Of a stretch of 64,000 bases of DNA, positions 7,825 to 64,000 are shown piece by piece. This stretch comes from an uncultured Chloroflexia bacterium (GTDB lineage Bacteria > Chloroflexota > Limnocylindria > Limnocylindrales > CSP1-4): assembly GCA_963768655.1 (NCBI GenBank), contig CAVYIM010000003.1, forward strand, positions 640,001 to 704,000, written 5' to 3'. A program made the position numbers and the translations under genes. Position 1 is the first letter of the stretch. Every line of letters starts with the position of its first letter. The notes below the pieces were generated by a model that was not told the origin of the DNA, searched no databases, and saw only the letters and a list, made by a program, of their open reading frames with translations.

Positions 7825-8829
7825 GTGCCAGACGCCGTACCCTCACCGGAATCCGCGATCCATGCCCGCAGCCTGACGAAACGCTTCGGGGCGTTCACCG
7901 CCGTCGACAGCGTCGACTTCGACGTGGCCGCCGGCGAGTCCTTCGGGTTCCTCGGCCCCAACGGCGCCGGCAAGACTTCCACGATGCGGATGATCGGGAC
8001 TGTCTCGCCGGTTACCGCCGGAACGCTCACCGTCTTCGGGCTGGACCCGGCTCACAATGGGGCTCGGATTCGGTCCCGGCTGGGCGTCGTCCCTCAAGCT
8101 GACACGCTCGACAACGAGCTGAGCGTCCTGGAGAACCTGCTCATCTACGGGCGCTACTTTGGCCTGTCGTGGGGCGAGGCCGGACGTCGAGCCACGGAGT
8201 TGCTCGATTTCGTGCAGCTGACGGAGCGATCCGGCGATCAGGTCGAACCGTTGTCCGGCGGCATGAAGCGGCGCCTCGTGATCGCGCGGGCCCTCATCAA
8301 CGACCCGGAGATGCTCCTCCTCGACGAGCCGACGACCGGCCTGGACCCCCAGGCCCGGCACCTGCTGTGGGACCGCCTGTACCGGCTCAAGCAGCGCGGC
8401 GTGACCCTCTGCCTGACGACCCACTACATGGACGAGGCGGAGCAGCTGTGCGACCGGCTCGTGGTCATGGACAAGGCGAAGATCGTGGCCGAAGGCTCGC
8501 CCCGCCAGCTGATCGAGCGATACGTCACGCGCGAGGTGCTGGAGCTGAGGTTCAATCGCGAGGACGAAGCCGAAGGCGACCGCGTGGCGACCGGCCCGGC
8601 AGGCGATGGCGTGACGAACGGCGGCGACCCCGACCTCGACGGCCAGCTCGAGGGCCTGGCCGAGCGAATTGAGCATCTGCCCGACCGGCTGCTCGTCTAC
8701 ACGGCCGACGGGGACGCGACCGCGGCCGCCGCCTTCGAGCGCGGGCTTCGACCCGCCAGCGTCCTCGTTCGCCGGAGCTCGCTGGAGGACGTCTTCCTCC
8801 GGCTCACCGGCCGCAGCCTGATCGAATGA
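7825..8829 (+). CDS. ABC-2 exporter ATP-binding protein (NodI-like)
   Basis: GPNGAGKT, LSGGMKRR, LLLDEPTTGLDPQARH, TTHYMDEAEQLCDR; the start is GTG 7825, not the 6715 start of the ORF track. Confidence 0.92.
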   Translation: MPDAVPSPESAIHARSLTKRFGAFTAVDSVDFDVAAGESFGFLGPNGAGKTSTMRMIGTVSPVTAGTLTVFGLDPAHNGARIRSRLGVVPQADTLDNELSVLENLLIYGRYFGLSWGEAGRRATELLDFVQLTERSGDQVEPLSGGMKRRLVIARALINDPEMLLLDEPTTGLDPQARHLLWDRLYRLKQRGVTLCLTTHYMDEAEQLCDRLVVMDKAKIVAEGSPRQLIERYVTREVLELRFNREDEAEGDRVATGPAGDGVTNGGDPDLDGQLEGLAERIEHLPDRLLVYTADGDATAAAAFERGLRPASVLVRRSSLEDVFLRLTGRSLIE

Positions 8830-9650
8830 TGGCTGCCGGCACTCCGTCTGCGGCGGGCCGCGGGCTCCTGTTCGGCCTGACGTTGCATCCCTCGTTCCGA
8901 GTTCTCGAGCACGACCTGCTGGTCTTTCGGCGGGGCTGGCACAGCTACATCCTGTCCGGTCTCAGCCAGCCGTTCCTGTACCTGCTGTCGATGGGCGTCG
9001 GCCTGGGCTATTACGTGAACCGCAATGGCGGGCTGCCCGGCGGCGTTCCTTATCTGGACTACATCGCGCCGGCGCTGCTGGTCACGCAGGCCATGATGGT
9101 CGCCAGCGCCGAATTGGCCTGGCCGACCATGAGCAAGTTCGCCTGGGAGAAGACGTACCTGGCGGCCCTCAACACTCCGCTCGGGTCCACGAACCTGCTC
9201 GCCGGCGACATGATGTGGATCGCCTTTCGGGCGACGCTGATCTCGGTCCTGTTCTTCGGCGTCATCCTGCTGTTCGGGGCCGTCGGCTCGCCGCTCGCCA
9301 TCCTGGCCGTCCCGGTCGCGGTGCTGACCGCGATGTCCTTCGCCGCCCCGATCATCGCCTTCACTGCGACGCAGAAGACCGACCAGCCCTTCAACATGCT
9401 GTTCCGGTTCGGCATCACGCCGCTCTTCCTGTTCAGCGGCACTTTCTTCCCGATCGACAATCTGCCGCTCTTCATCCGACCGCTGGCCTGGTTCACGCCG
9501 CTCTACCACGGCGTCAGCCTGGCCCGGAGCTTCTCGCTGGGCCAGATCGACCCGATCGGCGAGGTCGTCCACTTCGCCGTCCTGGGCGCGTTCGTGGTGT
9601 TTGGACTGGTCGCCGCGCGGATCACATTCCGGCGCAGGCTGGAAGTCTGA
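8826..9650 (+). CDS. ABC-2 exporter permease (NodJ-like)
   Basis: About 6 TM helices; PLFLFSGTFFP...TPLYHGV; overlaps the ATPase stop. Confidence 0.9.
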   Translation: MMAAGTPSAAGRGLLFGLTLHPSFRVLEHDLLVFRRGWHSYILSGLSQPFLYLLSMGVGLGYYVNRNGGLPGGVPYLDYIAPALLVTQAMMVASAELAWPTMSKFAWEKTYLAALNTPLGSTNLLAGDMMWIAFRATLISVLFFGVILLFGAVGSPLAILAVPVAVLTAMSFAAPIIAFTATQKTDQPFNMLFRFGITPLFLFSGTFFPIDNLPLFIRPLAWFTPLYHGVSLARSFSLGQIDPIGEVVHFAVLGAFVVFGLVAARITFRRRLEV

Positions 9651-57599: not shown

Positions 57600-58898
57600 A
57601 TGCCCAAACCGCTCGTCGTCCAGAAGTACGGCGGCTCGTCCGTCGCCAACGCAGACCGAATCCGGCGCGTGGCCGCGCGCGTCGCCCGCGAGCGGGCCAG
57701 CGGCTGCGACCTGGTGGTCGTCGTGTCGGCGATGGGCGAGACCACGGACGAGCTGCTCGCCCTGGCGGGCGCCATCACCGACGAGCCGGATGCGCGCGAG
57801 CTCGACATGCTCCTCGCGACCGGAGAGCACCAGAGCGCCACTCTCGTGTCGATGGCCCTGCACGCGCTGGGCGTGCCGGCGATCGCGCTGTCCGGCGCTC
57901 AGGCGGGCATCACTACCGACGGCAACTACGGCAAGGCCCGCATCGCGGGCATCGACCCCAAGCGCATCTTCTCCGAGCTCGAGGCAGGCCGAGTCGTCAT
58001 CGTCGCGGGCTTCCAGGGCCAGAGCGTGCGAGACCCGCATCTGTCCGAGATCACCACGCTGGGCCGCGGCGGCTCGGACACGACCGGCGTCGCGCTTGCG
58101 GCCGCTCTCGAAGCCGACCGCTGCCAGATCTTCACCGACGTTCGGGGCATCTACACCGCCGATCCCCGTCTCGTGCCCGAGGCCCGCCAGCTGCCGGTCA
58201 TCTCGTACGAGGAGATGATGGAGCTGGCGCACCAGGGTGCTCAGGTGATGCAGGTCCGGGCCGTCGAGCTCGGTTGGGTCAACAACGTCGTCATCGAGGT
58301 GCTGAGCTCGTTCGAAGACGTCCCCGGCACGCTGATCAAGGAGGACCCGTTCGTGGAGCAGCGCAACAAGGTTCGCGGGCTGGCCCACGACCGCAACGTG
58401 GCCAAGGTCACACTCGTGGAAGTTCCAGACCGGCCCGGAGTCGCTCACTCGGTCTTCGCGCCGCTGGCCGAGGCGGGCATCAACGTCGACACGATCGTGC
58501 AGAACGTCGGCCATCACGGCACGACGGACCTGAGCTTCACGATCACCCGTGGCGACCTCGCCAAGACCAAGCGCATCCTCGAGCCCATCGTCCGCGAGCT
58601 CGGCTTCCGCGAGATGACCACCGACTCGGCGATGGCGAAAGTGTCGATCGTCGGGGCCGGCATCCAGAACGCGCCGGGCTACGCCTCGCGCATGTTCGCC
58701 GCGCTGGCCGAGGCCGGCGTGAACATCGAGATCATCTCTACCTCGGAGATCCGCATCACCTGCATGATCGCCGAGGACCAGGTCGAGACCGCCGTTCGCG
58801 CCCTGCACAAGGCCTTCGCGCTCGAGGAGCCCGAGCCGCTGGTACAGGACGAAGCTGGAGCGGCGGGCACCGGCGGGGCGACGAAGACGGGCGCGTGA
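57600..58898 (+). CDS. lysC: Aspartate kinase
   Basis: VQKYGGSSV, VVSAMG, TTLGRGGSDT, TDVRGIYTADPR, two ACT domains. Confidence 0.97.
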   Translation: MPKPLVVQKYGGSSVANADRIRRVAARVARERASGCDLVVVVSAMGETTDELLALAGAITDEPDARELDMLLATGEHQSATLVSMALHALGVPAIALSGAQAGITTDGNYGKARIAGIDPKRIFSELEAGRVVIVAGFQGQSVRDPHLSEITTLGRGGSDTTGVALAAALEADRCQIFTDVRGIYTADPRLVPEARQLPVISYEEMMELAHQGAQVMQVRAVELGWVNNVVIEVLSSFEDVPGTLIKEDPFVEQRNKVRGLAHDRNVAKVTLVEVPDRPGVAHSVFAPLAEAGINVDTIVQNVGHHGTTDLSFTITRGDLAKTKRILEPIVRELGFREMTTDSAMAKVSIVGAGIQNAPGYASRMFAALAEAGVNIEIISTSEIRITCMIAEDQVETAVRALHKAFALEEPEPLVQDEAGAAGTGGATKTGA

Positions 58899-59833
58899 CC
58901 ACGAGCGTCGCGTTTCTCTCGCGACACGAGCGGTTCCGATCGGCCCCTTCCACTAACGACATCGTCCGAAGCTGGCTGATCGCGGGAACCGCCGAGGTCT
59001 GCCTCGCCGTGGCCGGCGAGCAGACTGCCGGTCGCGGGCGGGCCGGTCGATCCTGGGTGGCGCCGAGCGGCGCCGCCCTGCTGCTGTCGCTCGGCTTTCG
59101 GCCGGCCTACCTGGCCGCCGACCGCCTGTGGAGATTGGCCGCGGTGGTTTCGCTGGCGATGGCCGACGCGGCCGAAGAGGTTGCCGGGTTGGCGGTCGGC
59201 AGACTTCGGCTGAAGTGGCCGAATGACATCGTCGTCGAGACGGCAGCGTACACGAGTGGCGCCGTGGGGAGGGGCGCCGTCGCGAGTCGCGCCGCCAGTC
59301 GCGCCACGGAGGGTGGCCATCGAGCGGCGGGCCTTCGCAAGATCGCCGGCGTCCTGGGCGAAACCGAGGGCGCCGGCACGGCCGATGCGCTGGCAATCGT
59401 GGGCATCGGCGTCAACGCCGACTGGCCGCCCGCCCTCTTCCCGGCGGAGCTGGCCAATTCGATGACGAGCCTGCACGAAGTCTCAGGCGGCCGTCGCATC
59501 GACGCCGACCAGCTGCTCGACGCCTTCCTGACGCGCCTGGAACCGCGCATCCTGGCGTTGCGCGACGGCCACTTCGACGTGGCCGGGTGGCACGATCGCC
59601 AGGTGACCACGGGGCGAATTGTTCGACTCGAGATGCATGCCGGGGAAGCAGAGGATCTCCGCGCGGTCGGCGTCGACGGAGCCACGGGGGCGCTGCTGGT
59701 CGAAGACCCGGCCGCTCCCGGCGCGGAGCGCGAGGTTCTGGCGGGGGAGGTTGTCCACGTGCGCCTGGCCGCCGGCGGCGACGCAGCCGAGTCGCGCTCG
59801 CCCGCTCGTGCCCGCCCGGATGTAACGCCGTGA
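58895..59833 (+). CDS. birA: Biotin--protein ligase, lacking an N-terminal HTH
   Basis: STND, QTAGRGRAGRSW, LKWPND, KIAGVLGE, GIGVN. Confidence 0.93.
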   Translation: MTTSVAFLSRHERFRSAPSTNDIVRSWLIAGTAEVCLAVAGEQTAGRGRAGRSWVAPSGAALLLSLGFRPAYLAADRLWRLAAVVSLAMADAAEEVAGLAVGRLRLKWPNDIVVETAAYTSGAVGRGAVASRAASRATEGGHRAAGLRKIAGVLGETEGAGTADALAIVGIGVNADWPPALFPAELANSMTSLHEVSGGRRIDADQLLDAFLTRLEPRILALRDGHFDVAGWHDRQVTTGRIVRLEMHAGEAEDLRAVGVDGATGALLVEDPAAPGAEREVLAGEVVHVRLAAGGDAAESRSPARARPDVTP

Positions 59834-60480
59834 GCCGGCCGGTGTTTAGCAGTACGGAGGAGGGCGCCCGTCCCGCCCGGCTGGATCGCGACCGCGGTCT
59901 GGTCGAAGCGGCCCGGCGCGATCCCGCCCGTTTCGACGCCCTCTACAGGAAGTACCTCGCCCAGGTGTACAGCTACGCGTACTACGAGCTCCGGGACCAC
60001 CACGCCGCCGAGGACGCCACCGAGCGCGTGTTCATGCAGGCGCTGACCGGGTTGCCGCGCTTCGAGGAGCGGGCCGACTCGTTCATCCGCGCCGGCGGCA
60101 CGGGCGACGCCCCGGCCGATATCCCGGTCGACGCCTCGACCTTCCGCGTCTGGCTGTTCCGCATCGCCCGCAACGTGGTGGCCAACGAGCGCCGGCGCGA
60201 CCGTCGCCGCCCGGTGGCTCCGCTCGAGCAAGCCGTCGGTCTCGCCGCCGCGGACGACATCTTCGAGTCCGCCGCCGCCCACGAGGCCGGCAACGCCGCC
60301 TGGCAGGCGGTCGCGCGCCTGCCGGAGGATCGGCGGCGGGCCGTGGTCCTGCGCTTCGTGGACGAGATGTCGACGGCCGAGATCGCCGAGGTCCTGGGCC
60401 GCTCGGAGGGAGCGGTTCGAGTGCTGCTTCATCGGGCCCTGCGTTCCGTCGCGGCGGATCTGCGCGGGAGGCTGAGCTGA
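59830..60480 (+). CDS. ECF RNA polymerase sigma factor
   Basis: FDALYRKY, AEDAT, WLFRIARN, EIAEVLGRSEGAVRVLLHRA. Confidence 0.93.
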   Translation: MSRPVFSSTEEGARPARLDRDRGLVEAARRDPARFDALYRKYLAQVYSYAYYELRDHHAAEDATERVFMQALTGLPRFEERADSFIRAGGTGDAPADIPVDASTFRVWLFRIARNVVANERRRDRRRPVAPLEQAVGLAAADDIFESAAAHEAGNAAWQAVARLPEDRRRAVVLRFVDEMSTAEIAEVLGRSEGAVRVLLHRALRSVAADLRGRLS

Positions 60481-61082
60481 TGCTGGGCGGCGCGTCGCGG
60501 GACGCCCGTCGGACCGAGCGCTATCTCGACGGCCTGATGGAGGCCGAGGAGCGCGGCGCGGCCGAGGTTCCAATGGATCTCGACCTGGACCCTGCCGTCC
60601 TGCTCGCCGCCAGCGAGTTGCGAGCGAGCCTCGTTCGCGTGCACCCGTCCTTCCGGTTCGAGGAAGGCCTGGCCGCTCGACTGGCGCTGACCGCCGGCGG
60701 GGCTCGGGGAGCGCACAGCAACGAACCGGCGCCGCCCGCAACGGCGTCGATCGCGCCTTTCCGGGTGCCGGGTTTCGCCGCCGGCGACGGCGCAGTCGCG
60801 GCCGATGAACCTGCCGCCACGCGCGACAGCTTCGCCGCCTCCGCGACACCGCATAGACTGTCCCTGACCGCGCGACCCTCTCGCCCGCTCGTCGTTGGCG
60901 GCGTGGGCGTAGCGTCGGCGGCCATATCAATCGGCGCCGTCTACGTTGCCTGGCGATGGTCGCGCGCCTCTCAATCGCCAATGGTTCGCGCCGTGCGTGC
61001 CGGCAGATCCGGCCGCGCATATGCGTCCGGACACGGCCGTCGCGCCGCAGTCCTCCACGGAATCCTCGGAGTGATGCCCTGA
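60480..61082 (+). CDS. Hypothetical membrane-anchored protein, putative anti-sigma factor
   Basis: TGATG coupling to the sigma gene; PSFRFEEGL segment and a single TM helix (GGVGVASAAISIGAVYVAW). Confidence 0.65.
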   Translation: MLGGASRDARRTERYLDGLMEAEERGAAEVPMDLDLDPAVLLAASELRASLVRVHPSFRFEEGLAARLALTAGGARGAHSNEPAPPATASIAPFRVPGFAAGDGAVAADEPAATRDSFAASATPHRLSLTARPSRPLVVGGVGVASAAISIGAVYVAWRWSRASQSPMVRAVRAGRSGRAYASGHGRRAAVLHGILGVMP

Positions 61083-62053
61083 TGCCGGTCCGACTCCCGT
61101 TCCGACCTCGCCGCGATGCCTACCCGCCCGACCTGTGGACCAAGTGCCCCGGCTGCGCGGAGATGCTGTTCAACAAGCAGCTGGACAAGACGCTGCGGGT
61201 CTGCCCGCACTGCGGCCATCACTTCCGCATCTCCGCGAAAGCTCGGATCGAGCAGCTCGTGGATCCCGGATCGTTCGTAGAGCGAGACGCGGACCTGACG
61301 CCCGTCGACGCCCTCGAGTTCGTGGACCTCAAGACCTACCCCGATCGACTCATGGCCGCCCAGCTCGCCACCGGACTGCGCGACGCCGCGATCTGGGGGC
61401 TGGCGGCGATGGGCGGCAAGACGATCTCGATGTGCGTCATGGACTTCGGCTTCATCGGCGGCTCGATGGGCTCCGTCATGGGCGAAAAGGTGGCCCGCGC
61501 CGGCGAGGCCGCTCTCGCCGAGCGCATCCCGCTCCTGATCGTCTCGTCGTCCGGCGGGGCCAGGATGCAGGAAGGCACCTATTCGCTGATGCAGCTCGTC
61601 AAGACGATGAGCGTGATGGAGCGCCTCAGGGCGGCGCGCGTGCCCTTCATCTCCGTCATGACGGACCCAACGACGGGTGGCGTATTCGCGTCGTTCGCGG
61701 TGGTCGGCGACGTCAACCTGGCCGAGCCCAACGCCCTTATCCGCTTCGCCGGAGACCGTGTCTCGGCCGGGACCATCGGCGAGGAGCTGCCGCCCGGCTA
61801 TGCGCGCGCCGAGTTCTGGTTCAGCCACGGGTTCGTCGACCGGATCGTGCCTCGAGCGCGACTCAGGGACGAGATCATCGCGTTGCTCGGGTTCCTCAGC
61901 GCTCCCACGAACGGCCACGCCGAGCCGCCCGGCCCGACGTCCCGGTCGCGGTCGTTCCTCAATGCCCTCACCGGAGCGCGCAACGCCGAGGGCAACGGCA
62001 AATCCCGCGCCCCCGAAGCGGGGCAGGCTCGCGGAGGGGCCACCAATGGTTGA
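61082..62053 (+). CDS. accD: Acetyl-CoA carboxylase carboxyltransferase beta subunit
   Basis: LWTKCPGC...VCPHC zinc finger, FIGGSMGSVMGEK, SGGARMQEG, PTTGGVFASF. Confidence 0.96.
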   Translation: MPVRLPFRPRRDAYPPDLWTKCPGCAEMLFNKQLDKTLRVCPHCGHHFRISAKARIEQLVDPGSFVERDADLTPVDALEFVDLKTYPDRLMAAQLATGLRDAAIWGLAAMGGKTISMCVMDFGFIGGSMGSVMGEKVARAGEAALAERIPLLIVSSSGGARMQEGTYSLMQLVKTMSVMERLRAARVPFISVMTDPTTGGVFASFAVVGDVNLAEPNALIRFAGDRVSAGTIGEELPPGYARAEFWFSHGFVDRIVPRARLRDEIIALLGFLSAPTNGHAEPPGPTSRSRSFLNALTGARNAEGNGKSRAPEAGQARGGATNG

Positions 62054-63032
62054 CCGACTTCTGGGTCGGCACGGACCGGGCGAAGCCCGCGCGGAGGACC
62101 CGGCCGCGGCGGTGTGGGCCCACGTCCAGCAGGCGCGCAACCTCAAGCGCCCGCACACTCTGGAACTGGTCAGAGCCATCGCCGACGAATTCATCGAGCT
62201 GCACGGCGACCGGCTCTTCGGCGACGACACGGCGATCGTCGCCGGCCTGGCGCGCATCGCCGGCCGCCGCGTCGTGGTGATCGGCTTCCAGAAGGGCCAG
62301 GACACCGAGGAGAACATCCGGCGCAACTTCGGCCTGCCGCATCCCGAGGGCTACCGCAAGGCGATGCGGGTCATGGATCTGGCCGAACGCTTCGCCATGC
62401 CGGTGCTCACCTTCGTCGACGTCCAGGGTGCGTTCCCCGGCGCGGCGGCCGAGGAGCGAGGCATCGCCGAGGCGATCGCGAAATCCGTCGGGATGTTGTC
62501 TCGCCTGCGGACCCCGGTCGTCGTCGTGATCACCGGCGAGGGTGGCTCGGGAGGAGCGCTTGGACTCGCCGTCGGCGACACGATCATCGCCCTGGAGAAC
62601 TCGATCTACTCCGTCATCAGCCCCGAGGGCTGCGCCACCATCCTGTGGCGCTCCGGCGAGCAGAGCCACCAGGCCGCGATGGCGATGAAGGTCACCGCCA
62701 ACGAGCAGCAGGAGCTGGGCATCGTCGACATCGTCATCCCCGAACCTGGCGAGGGCGCCCACACCGATCCGGCCGAGACTGCCAGGCGGATAAAAGAGGT
62801 CGTCCTGGAGCGGTTCGACGTCCTGGGCCGCATCCCGCTCGACGAGCTCGTGGAGGCCCGTTTCAAGAAGTTCCGGGTCATGGGCCCCTATGTCGTCGCC
62901 GACCGCCCGGCGCCGCCGCCGGAGCGGACCGGCATCACCGACAGGCTGCGGGGCCTGCTCTCGAACATGCCGTCGATGCCGTCCCTGCCCGGTACCAGGC
63001 GCGACGTGCCGCCCGGCCGGGAGGAGGTCTAG
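62046..63032 (+). CDS. accA: Acetyl-CoA carboxylase carboxyltransferase alpha subunit
   Basis: ELHGDR, NFGLPHPEGYRKA, GEGGSGGAL, YSVISPEGCATILW. Confidence 0.96.
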   Translation: MVDRLLGRHGPGEARAEDPAAAVWAHVQQARNLKRPHTLELVRAIADEFIELHGDRLFGDDTAIVAGLARIAGRRVVVIGFQKGQDTEENIRRNFGLPHPEGYRKAMRVMDLAERFAMPVLTFVDVQGAFPGAAAEERGIAEAIAKSVGMLSRLRTPVVVVITGEGGSGGALGLAVGDTIIALENSIYSVISPEGCATILWRSGEQSHQAAMAMKVTANEQQELGIVDIVIPEPGEGAHTDPAETARRIKEVVLERFDVLGRIPLDELVEARFKKFRVMGPYVVADRPAPPPERTGITDRLRGLLSNMPSMPSLPGTRRDVPPGREEV

Positions 63033-63035
63033 CCG

Positions 63036-63728
63036 ATGCCGGCACATCGAAACGGCCCGACCGGCACGTCCGGACACGCCGCCGGAGCCACGTCAGGAGC
63101 CACGTCCGGAGCGCGCGCCAGAGGCCTGGACGCGCGCACGGAACGAGACCACGCGGCCATCTCCGATCTGGCCGACGATCTACTCCCGGCCCTAATCGCC
63201 AAGCTGGCCGCCAGCGGACTCGGCGAGATCGAGGTCCGCGAAGGGGAGTGGAAGGCTCGCCTACGCAAGCCTTCCGGGATCGACGACCGCAAGGGATCCG
63301 GACACGGCCCCGGGGAGGGGCACTCCGGCTACGGCCATGCCACGAGCCGCGGCCCGGCCGCGAGCGCCGGCCGCACCGTCGCCGAGGAGCGCGAGCGGCT
63401 CGCCCGCGAGGGGGAAGAGGCCCGGCAGGCGGCCAACCTGCCGATCGTGGCCATCTCTCCCGCGGTCGGGATCTTTCAGCCGCGCAAGGACCTGGCCGCC
63501 GGGATGAGGGTCCGCGCCGGCGATCGCCTTGGCACGGTGGACGTGCTCGGCGTGCGTGAGGACGTGGTTGCGCCGATGGACGGCGTAGTCGGGCCGAGCC
63601 TGGCCGAGGCCGGAGAGGCCGTCGAGTACGGACAGGAGCTGATTCGGATCGAGCTGCCGGAGAACTCTCGCAGTCTCGAAGTCAACGGCGCGGACCGCGA
63701 GGCGGCCGCCGTCCTCGGGGAAGCCTGA
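63036..63728 (+). CDS. BCCP (AccB)-like protein lacking the biotinylation lysine
   Basis: BCCP N-terminal motif [18 protein letters not shown] and biotinyl-domain motifs SPAVGIF...G..V..GD.LG...VEYGQEL, but EAMKM is replaced by DVLGV (63540-63554). Confidence 0.85.
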
Positions 63729-64000
63729 TGTTCAGCAAGATCCTGATCGCCAATCGGGGCGAAATCGCCCTCCGGGTCCTGCGCGCTTGCCGGACCCTCG
63801 GAGTCGGGGCGGTGGTCGCCTACAGCGAGGCCGATCGCGACAGCCTGGCCGCCCAGCTCGCCGACGAGGCGATCTGCATCGGCCCGGCGGACGCGCGGCG
63901 CAGCTACCTGTCGGCCCCGGCCGTGATCTCGGCCGCGGTCGTGACCGGCTGCGACGCGATCCATCCCGGCTACGGGTTCCTGTCCGAGGATGCGGGCTTC
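63728..64000 (+). CDS. accC: Biotin carboxylase (3'-truncated by window edge)
   Basis: [21 protein letters not shown]...ADEAICIGP...SYL...[11 protein letters not shown]; TGATG coupling. Confidence 0.95.

Follow-up and report, generated by a model that had tools for sequence, protein, structure and literature searches.

A biotin carboxyl carrier protein paralogue without the biotin-accepting lysine, encoded between accA and accC in the Limnocylindria and with relatives elsewhere in the Chloroflexota

What use might a bacterium have for a BCCP (biotin carboxyl carrier protein) that has lost the residue to which biotin is attached? The question is raised by an open reading frame (ORF) lying between accA and accC in a 64,000-nucleotide stretch of DNA, here called the window, from an uncultured Chloroflexota bacterium of the class Limnocylindria (assembly GCA_963768655.1, contig CAVYIM010000003.1, positions 640,001 to 704,000). 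Its product, here called the Lys-less protein, is a homologue of the carrier subunit of heteromeric acetyl-CoA carboxylase (ACC), which catalyses the committed step of fatty-acid synthesis and is targeted by antibiotics and herbicides. The way in which the loosely associated ACC subunits come together is still under study, and the filament structures of the Escherichia coli enzyme are recent. The gene and the parts of its product are the following, with folded elements taken from an AlphaFold2 (AF2) model and model confidence given as the predicted local distance difference test (pLDDT).

63036..63728, plus strand: gene for the Lys-less BCCP paralogue, 230 aa, stop codon included in the coordinates; match to TIGR00531 of 28 bits over residues 52-206
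63020..63027, plus strand: Shine-Dalgarno-like GGAGGAGG, 8 nt 5' of the ATG of the Lys-less gene, read directly from the sequence
63141..63269, plus strand: N-terminal BCCP-type domain, helix plus beta-hairpin, residues 36-78 (AF2 helix 33-60, strands 64-69 and 72-77)
63444..63653, plus strand: biotinyl-domain-like barrel, residues 137-206, with a thumb six residues short (AF2 pLDDT >90)
63549..63551, plus strand: Gly172 codon GGC at the position of the biotin-accepting lysine, aligned to the K of E. coli VEAMKM
63654..63725, plus strand: lineage-specific C-terminal tail, residues 207-230, with a low-confidence helix at 209-228 in the AF2 model

The site at which biotin would be attached has been lost. 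A profile of 15 orthologues matches full-length E. coli BCCP (PDB 4HR7_B, E 2.2e-14) through both the N-terminal module and the barrel, from residue 28 onward, and because the hairpin segment of the Lys-less protein sits on VEAMKMMNQI in this alignment, Gly172 occupies the position of the biotinyl lysine. Where a BCCP has the biotin-acceptor hairpin (E/V)-A-M-K-(M/L), the Lys-less protein has V-D-V-L-G-V, with all four residues flanking the site changed relative to EAMKM. The thumb is 2+4 residues shorter than the TPSPDAKAF thumb of E. coli BCCP, the same six-residue gap is found against the canonical BCCP of the same genome, and the thumb loop typical of ACC-type BCCPs is thus not kept at full length. 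All 120 listed homologues have glycine in this column, as do 148 of 150 listed cluster representatives, the other two being N-terminal fragments. Not one of 269 family sequences contains E[AVT]MK, and since lysine exceeds 52% and cysteine reaches 30% in no column of these 269 members, there is no alternative conserved attachment residue. In a Chloroflexus BCCP domain, the account in PMC11077971 has the K553A exchange abolishing biotinylation. The glycine in place of lysine, the changed hairpin and the short thumb together imply that carboxybiotin cannot be carried; as far as its sequence tells, the Lys-less protein cannot be a carboxyl carrier and is not a functional BCCP.

These findings bear out an earlier note, made from the letters of the window alone, which had described an ORF of BCCP architecture with glycine at the lysine codon 63549-63551 and a shortened thumb loop, and had called the product a non-biotinylatable BCCP homologue. 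The description holds for the canonical site. The note had thought a sequencing error implausible; the uniform glycine in homologues and cluster representatives now excludes one, and chance as well. It had also named retention of MKM in close relatives as an observation that would count against it, and no such relative was found among the 269 sequences.

The model shows the carrier fold intact with high confidence, and the protein could in principle carry another prosthetic group, or be charged through a different residue. Such a role is very improbable: no lysine or cysteine is conserved in the 269 family members, and the residue at the tip of the hairpin, glycine here, is Asn, Ala, Met, Arg, Ser or Gln in more distant relatives, which leaves no common attachment chemistry. 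A subgroup of the family (P0142, P0155, P0166, P0179, P0181, P0188, P0196, P0203, P0237 and P0240) has the hairpin VDCLGV, with a cysteine before Leu-Gly, and also bears long Ala/Pro-rich C-terminal extensions.

The remainder of the protein is BCCP-like. As modelled, both folded modules of a BCCP are retained, with the helix and hairpin near the N-terminus and the biotinyl-type barrel towards the C-terminus. Along the chain, the AF2 model (mean pLDDT 67.9) has a helix at residues 33-60, a hairpin at 64-77, then a disordered linker, the barrel (137-206) and a low-confidence C-terminal helix, and a model of the canonical BCCP of the same genome follows the same plan of helix, hairpin, linker and barrel. 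The BCCP arrangement of an N-terminal module followed by an Ala/Pro-rich linker is found alike in the TIGR00531 match, the 4HR7_B alignment and the models. At the C-terminus the AF2 model and Foldseek agree on a barrel-sandwich biotinyl domain, the top Foldseek matches being BCCP structures: 2evb (TMt 0.88, root-mean-square deviation 1.5), then 1bdo and 4hr7_G. A search of the ESM Atlas with residues 130-210 returned generic biotin/lipoyl clusters only (scores 0.88-0.91), and the N-terminal domain is 43% identical to that of the genome's own canonical BCCP over 30 residues by BLASTP (E 0.015). Relative to canonical AccB (TIGR00531; 1BDO, 4HR7), the Lys-less protein thus has the same two-module architecture and fold and a gene position upstream of accC, but differs in the missing biotinyl lysine, the altered hairpin, the thumb shorter by six residues and the additional C-terminal tail. 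Close relatives keep the tail; in the families f2 and f4 of the class it is short or missing.

The gene is also widespread and under constraint. A search for homologues gave a list of 120 proteins, 55-100% identical to the query; the source names seen were Candidatus Limnocylindrales bacterium, and some products were named 'hypothetical protein', others 'biotin carboxyl carrier protein'. When 1.84 billion cluster representatives were searched with a profile, 139 clusters, defined at 50% identity, matched at E<=1e-30, and the number rose to 843 with a limit of E<=1e-10. Among 41 genomes (the source genome, 24 of its genus and 16 of the sister family), the Lys-less gene is present in 40, the exception, G013, being 77% complete. 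In a sample of 201 genomes of the class, a match to the Lys-less profile at E<=1e-5 is present in 198; for seven of them it is weaker than about 1e-8 and may be a cross-hit or a fragment. The tallies for the 41 and the 201 genomes include nine genomes flagged as unpublished, which were counted only, with no sequences of theirs used. The earlier note had proposed looking for purifying selection among orthologues, and it is found. With the NG86 method applied to 12 same-genus orthologues, and medians taken over pairs with dS of 0.05-1.5, the ratio of nonsynonymous to synonymous substitution rates (dN/dS) is 0.16 in the N-terminal module and 0.17 in the barrel; it is 0.48 in the linker, 0.77 in the first 35 residues and 0.57 in the C-terminal tail.

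It follows that a decaying, functionless accB duplicate, or an assembly artefact, is an extremely unlikely explanation. The scores of the protein lie under the family cut-offs, as one might expect of a remnant, and in two genomes of the same genus the gene is split over two reading frames. Nevertheless, the ORF is conserved throughout the class and in the 139 clusters, dN/dS is about 0.16 in both domains, the glycine and its neighbours are invariant, and the start codon (M1 is invariant in 15 orthologues), the Shine-Dalgarno sequence and the translational coupling described below are conserved. For the two split copies (G001:C2:340106-340686 and G003:C2:171376-171947), possible explanations are a frameshift, a pseudogene and faulty assembly.

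The earlier note had predicted a true BCCP elsewhere in the genome and had proposed looking especially just past position 64000. It lies about 4 kb beyond the end of the window in the same acc/fab cluster, between fabF and fabH (G000:C3:707728-708156). The working carrier is this second, canonical BCCP of 186 aa, with the hairpin IEAMKLFNEIK and a TIGR00531 score of 121.5 bits. A canonical BCCP (93-121 bits) is likewise found in 40 of the 41 genomes, the exception, G020, being 81% complete, and where both genes are on one contig they are usually about 4.5 kb apart. In the class sample, 193 of the 201 genomes have a TIGR00531 match at E<=1e-20; since the two sets of misses are disjoint, 190 genomes have matches of both kinds.

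The Lys-less gene is embedded in a run of ACC genes, which in the window are the following.

58274..59833, plus strand: birA, biotin-protein ligase, longest ORF (TIGR00121, 100.9 bits, above cut-off, residues 222-495); the true start is probably later than 58274
61082..62053, plus strand: accD, carboxyltransferase beta with zinc ribbon (TIGR00515, 329 bits, above cut-off; PF17848); 61082 is a probable start, placed at M43 of an ORF whose longest form begins at 60956
62046..63032, plus strand: accA, carboxyltransferase alpha (PF03255, 373.6 bits; NF004344, 372 bits, above cut-off); start probable, placed by alignment to AccA of locus L031 and from the sequence
63728..64000, plus strand: 5' part of accC, biotin carboxylase (PF00289, 119.5 bits), which continues past the window to a full length of 454 aa (ORF at L008 6729-8093)

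The order of the whole cluster is accD-accA-[Lys-less]-accC-fabZ-metallophosphoesterase-fabF-accB-fabH-fabG. Counted from its ATG at 62046, accA shares its first 8 nt with the end of accD, the accA stop (63030-63032) is separated from the ATG of the Lys-less gene by a gap of 3 nt, and the TGA of the Lys-less gene (63726-63728) overlaps the accC ATG at 63728 in the sequence TGATG. From the sigma gene upstream of accD to fabG, only one weak terminator-like site was found, inside fabZ; shuffled sequences gave a mean of 3.5 such sites. Judged by these junctions, accD, accA, the Lys-less gene and accC are transcribed together and coupled in translation. The interval between birA and accD holds a sigma-70-family gene with regions 2 and 4 (59587-60480) and an adjoining ORF without a family match (60480-61082), possibly an anti-sigma factor; in family f3 the place of the sigma gene upstream of accD is taken by degV. 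Just past the window, the gene between fabZ and fabF encodes a calcineurin-like metallophosphoesterase (L008 about 8590-9332, C3:705589-706331). In f2 a 249-aa ORF occupies its place, and at the f4 locus L028 fabZ directly adjoins fabF.

Hairpins and gene orders in the five families of the class are as follows.

f1: hairpins VDVLG[VI] and VDLLGI; accD-accA-[Lys-less]-accC-fabZ-...-fabF-accB-fabH
f2: hairpins VDVLGV, VEVLGI and VDVVGV; order as in f1, with accD and accA as one 659-aa ORF
f4: hairpins VDVLGV and VEMLG[VI]; order as in f1
f3: hairpins VQSLGA and VQSLGH; (birA-)degV-accD-accA-[Lys-less]-three or four further genes-fabD-accC, with birA seen in f3
f5: hairpin VQSLGH; order as in f3

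The constant neighbour is accA: in loci read from all five families the Lys-less gene lies immediately 3' of it. The single 659-aa accD-accA ORF (L022 6595-8574 and L021 6566-8545, both on the minus strand) belongs to sister-family genomes of 1.0-1.4 Mb. A 635-aa frame in f5 (L034) that looked like a fusion of AccA with the Lys-less protein was rejected as an artefact, a run of N inside accA keeping the frame open.

To our knowledge, no non-catalytic subunits derived from the carrier have yet been described other than the plant BADC proteins, and whether these inhibit ACC or hold it together is disputed. The epsilon subunit of the actinobacterial acyl-CoA carboxylases, AccE, is not known to be related to the Lys-less protein in sequence or fold and is not carrier-derived; what the two would have in common is a small size and a non-catalytic part in the assembly or activation of a biotin carboxylase complex. 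Such subunits are mentioned as a 'glue' in PMC11926652. In the accounts of PMC11926652 and PMC12706156, BADCs are homologues of BCCP that are not biotinylated: they combine BCCP-like domains with a disordered linker, lack the biotinylation motif, bind biotin carboxylase (BC) and BCCP, and have been called both inhibitors and 'glue'. They coexist with genuine BCCP in a heteromeric, four-subunit-type ACC. The Lys-less protein shares these sequence features, being a BCCP homologue without a biotinylation motif that coexists with a bona fide heteromeric-ACC BCCP in the 190 class genomes noted above. The analogy with BADC drawn in the earlier note therefore stands at the level of sequence logic, that is, a Lys-less BCCP paralogue beside a real BCCP. 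The Chloroflexota protein differs in being bacterial, in being encoded inside an acc/fab operon, in the shortened thumb of its Limnocylindria form, and in that BADC has been shown to bind BC and BCCP and to affect activity whereas the Chloroflexota protein is known from sequence. It almost certainly arose within the Chloroflexota, independently of BADC, as would be expected from the trees described below, which place it with the efp-type BCCPs of that phylum.

On balance, the Lys-less protein is probably a non-catalytic, BADC-like subunit or regulator of ACC that is made together with AccD, AccA and AccC. By analogy with BADC we infer that it would associate physically with other subunits of ACC, and it might either activate or restrain the enzyme. 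It would enter the ACC complex by BCCP-type contacts and occupy positions otherwise held by BCCP. In E. coli, as set out in PMC11160672, the N-terminal approximately 30 residues of BCCP are predicted to form an alpha/beta/beta module, modelled as oligomerising inside ACC tubes or filaments, and there is a non-catalytic docking site for BCCP on BC and the N-terminus of AccD. Two ways in are conceivable for the Lys-less protein, one in which its N-terminal module co-oligomerises with BCCP and one that uses the non-catalytic site of BC, and the outcome could be help with assembly or limited access of holo-BCCP, as has been proposed for plant BADC.

Several observations weigh against this proposal. 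The protein falls below both Pfam and NCBIfam cut-offs: it aligns through residues 52-206 with positions 8-155/156 of TIGR00531, at 28.1 bits where the cut-off is 115.2, and it scores 19.3 bits with the Pfam Biotin_lipoyl family (PF00364), for which the gathering score is 22.1, a threshold passed by relatives in f3, f5 and other classes (28.8-60 bits). The hairpin and the thumb, the most altered parts of the protein, are those that E. coli BCCP uses at active sites and in dimerisation, so the known BCCP binding modes may not carry over. In other classes the relatives are linked to efp, which makes the operon position lineage-specific and perhaps in part an inherited accB slot. Finally, the only possible sign of expression comes from relatives' contigs in one RNA library that cover part of the gene, where carry-over of DNA is possible. 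No sequencing run contained more than 0.07 of the sampled words; three runs compared at 80% likeness yielded relatives' contigs only, and the one contig from the RNA library covers 63430-63717 with 47 differences.

Lys-less relatives outside the class are numerous. In 34 genomes from other Chloroflexota families, a sample biased toward Lys-less proteins, we read the hairpin of the best match to the Lys-less profile: 25 of the 34 lack the lysine and nine keep EAMK, ETMK or EVMK. The hairpins had to be read one by one because canonical efp-linked Chloroflexota BCCPs reach 67 bits with the profile, and the bit score was abandoned as a classifier outside the class. The residue at the lysine site is Gly in f22, f27, f34 and one member of f25; Asn in f25, f38, f10, f47 and f29; Ala in f29; Met in f33; Arg in f41 and f10; Ser in f81; and Gln in f8. 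Family f25 is the Ktedonobacteria, and its members include the cultured Thermogemmatispora tikiterensis, T. argillosa and Dictyobacter arantiisoli. None of 120 listed homologues of the f25 protein keeps the lysine, 114 of the 118 hairpins caught by a sequence pattern have Asn at the site, in the form [EQ]-[SAT]-L-N-[VIL], and the NCBI name of these proteins, those of Ktedonobacteraceae included, is 'acetyl-CoA carboxylase biotin carboxyl carrier protein'.

The eight Lys-less loci outside the class whose neighbours were examined have the order pepP-efp-[X]-xseA, whole or in part, with no acc gene adjoining. The earlier note had pointed to the position in the acc operon. Adjacency to accA does hold in the loci read from all five families of the class, but operon position by itself is a weaker argument for a role in ACC because relatives in other classes adjoin efp and not acc genes. 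With at least eight such loci between efp and xseA, it might be supposed that the protein is an adaptor or subunit of some other enzyme or process and that its operon position in the Limnocylindria is a relic of accB. The fold is indeed common in proteins that are not carboxylases, and there are weak matches to HlyD/RND adaptors, with BesA among the Foldseek matches. A role outside ACC is nonetheless unlikely. In the Limnocylindria the gene has stayed 3' of accA despite rearrangements that displaced accC, and the BCCP-specific N-terminal module has been kept, not just a generic barrel. Nor does linkage to efp argue for such a role, because canonical, Lys-bearing BCCPs of other families (G476, G469, G490 and partly G329) share the same pepP-efp-[X]-xseA slot.

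The efp-linked Lys-less proteins share with those of the Limnocylindria a VEYGQ C-terminal signature, the loss of lysine and the same side of a branch in the trees, and differ from them in gene order (pepP-efp-[X]-xseA rather than accA-[X]-accC), in a mostly full-length thumb, and in having N, A, M, R, S or Q where the Limnocylindria proteins have G. The ktedonobacterial members still score about 110 bits with TIGR00531. In three genomes with a Lys-less efp-linked copy that were checked (G368, G503 and G267), there is also a canonical BCCP (LIEAMKVFNEI) directly after fabF. Of four genomes with a Lys-bearing efp-linked copy, three have no second full-length BCCP above 100 bits, and G490 has one, at 114 bits. 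These small samples suggest a rule: where a genome has a canonical BCCP of the fabF type, its efp-type copy lacks the lysine.

Two maximum-likelihood trees (LG+C20), one with 48 and one with 68 BCCP-like sequences from the loci described here, are unrooted, are built from short proteins and contain no plant sequences. In both, a single branch parts all the Lys-bearing sequences from all the Lys-less ones, with support of 94/95 and presence in 96% of bootstrap trees for the 48 sequences, and support of 94/67 and presence in 94% for the 68; the Lys-less sequences are long-branched, and the hairpin columns themselves add to the split. The fabF-linked canonical BCCPs form a clade, and the efp-linked canonical ones branch nearest to the Lys-less sequences. 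A single, ancient loss of the lysine in the efp-type lineage would fit this topology, which does not prove it. In the 68-sequence tree, the proteins of f1, f2 and f4 group with those of f22, and the proteins of f3 and f5 with those of f27 and f34, so the Lys-less genes of the class are not clearly one clade. A tentative scenario, possible but rather doubtful, is that the Lys-less proteins represent an ancient, phylum-wide, non-biotinylatable BCCP lineage with a single origin from the efp-linked accB, after the fabF-linked BCCP had taken over carboxyl transfer. The protein would then have been retained over hundreds of millions of years as an obligatory subunit of ACC without catalytic function, a counterpart of plant BADC evolved independently in bacteria, and would have moved into the accDA-accC operon in the Limnocylindria.

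The biotin economy of the organism bears on the question as well. Its genome encodes a BioY biotin transporter (G000:C2:49562-50005, 107.7 bits), no bioB match was found anywhere in the genome, which is 88.6% complete, and biotin import may be a necessity for the organism. A pseudo-carrier could spare biotin in organisms that must import it, provided that a BCCP oligomer works with only part of its protomers biotinylated; BioY without a detected bioB fits such a role and does not show it. The same pair of observations would suit a mimic of apo-BCCP in regulation, either an unbiotinylatable ligand of BirA or an autoregulator of the acc operon acting through its N-terminal module, that tunes biotin use or acc expression. 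Indeed, birA lies upstream of accD both in this genome and in f3, and in E. coli, according to PMC11160672, residues 1-68 of AccB are a negative regulator of expression and apo-AccB relieves repression of the biotin operon. We consider a regulator of this kind improbable: the sequence carries no sign of DNA or RNA binding, and recognition by BirA is doubtful because the residues around the acceptor site all differ from EAMKM.

The family is more general than the earlier note assumed, extending across a class and, in related form, across a phylum. Our literature searches found no paper on a bacterial Lys-less BCCP, and this large bacterial family is apparently undescribed. Should the protein prove to be a BADC-like part of ACC, the inhibitor-versus-glue question would become testable in simpler systems, with members in acc operons and cultured organisms such as Thermogemmatispora and Dictyobacter, and loss of the biotin site with retention of the protein would be a recurrent solution. 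Database annotation would need correction, the present names being 'biotin carboxyl carrier protein' or 'hypothetical protein'.

A scan with the VEYGQ pattern proved too general to delimit the family, 77 of 80 loci being Lys-bearing BCCPs from many phyla. Only two of the 80 lack the lysine, L169 (Dictyobacter) and L115, from an unclassified metagenome-assembled genome (MAG; 'MAG: bacterium isolate Yes70-31'). The L115 gene (2501-2719) encodes a BCCP with the hairpin VEVMGV, glycine at the site and a full-length thumb, in the order pepP-efp-[X]-accC. This places a Lys-less protein in the classical efp-accB-accC slot, and the phenomenon may extend past the families sampled here. At L171, from an uncultured Aquificaceae MAG, the BCCP hairpin reads EALKV, with the lysine kept and the preceding methionine replaced.

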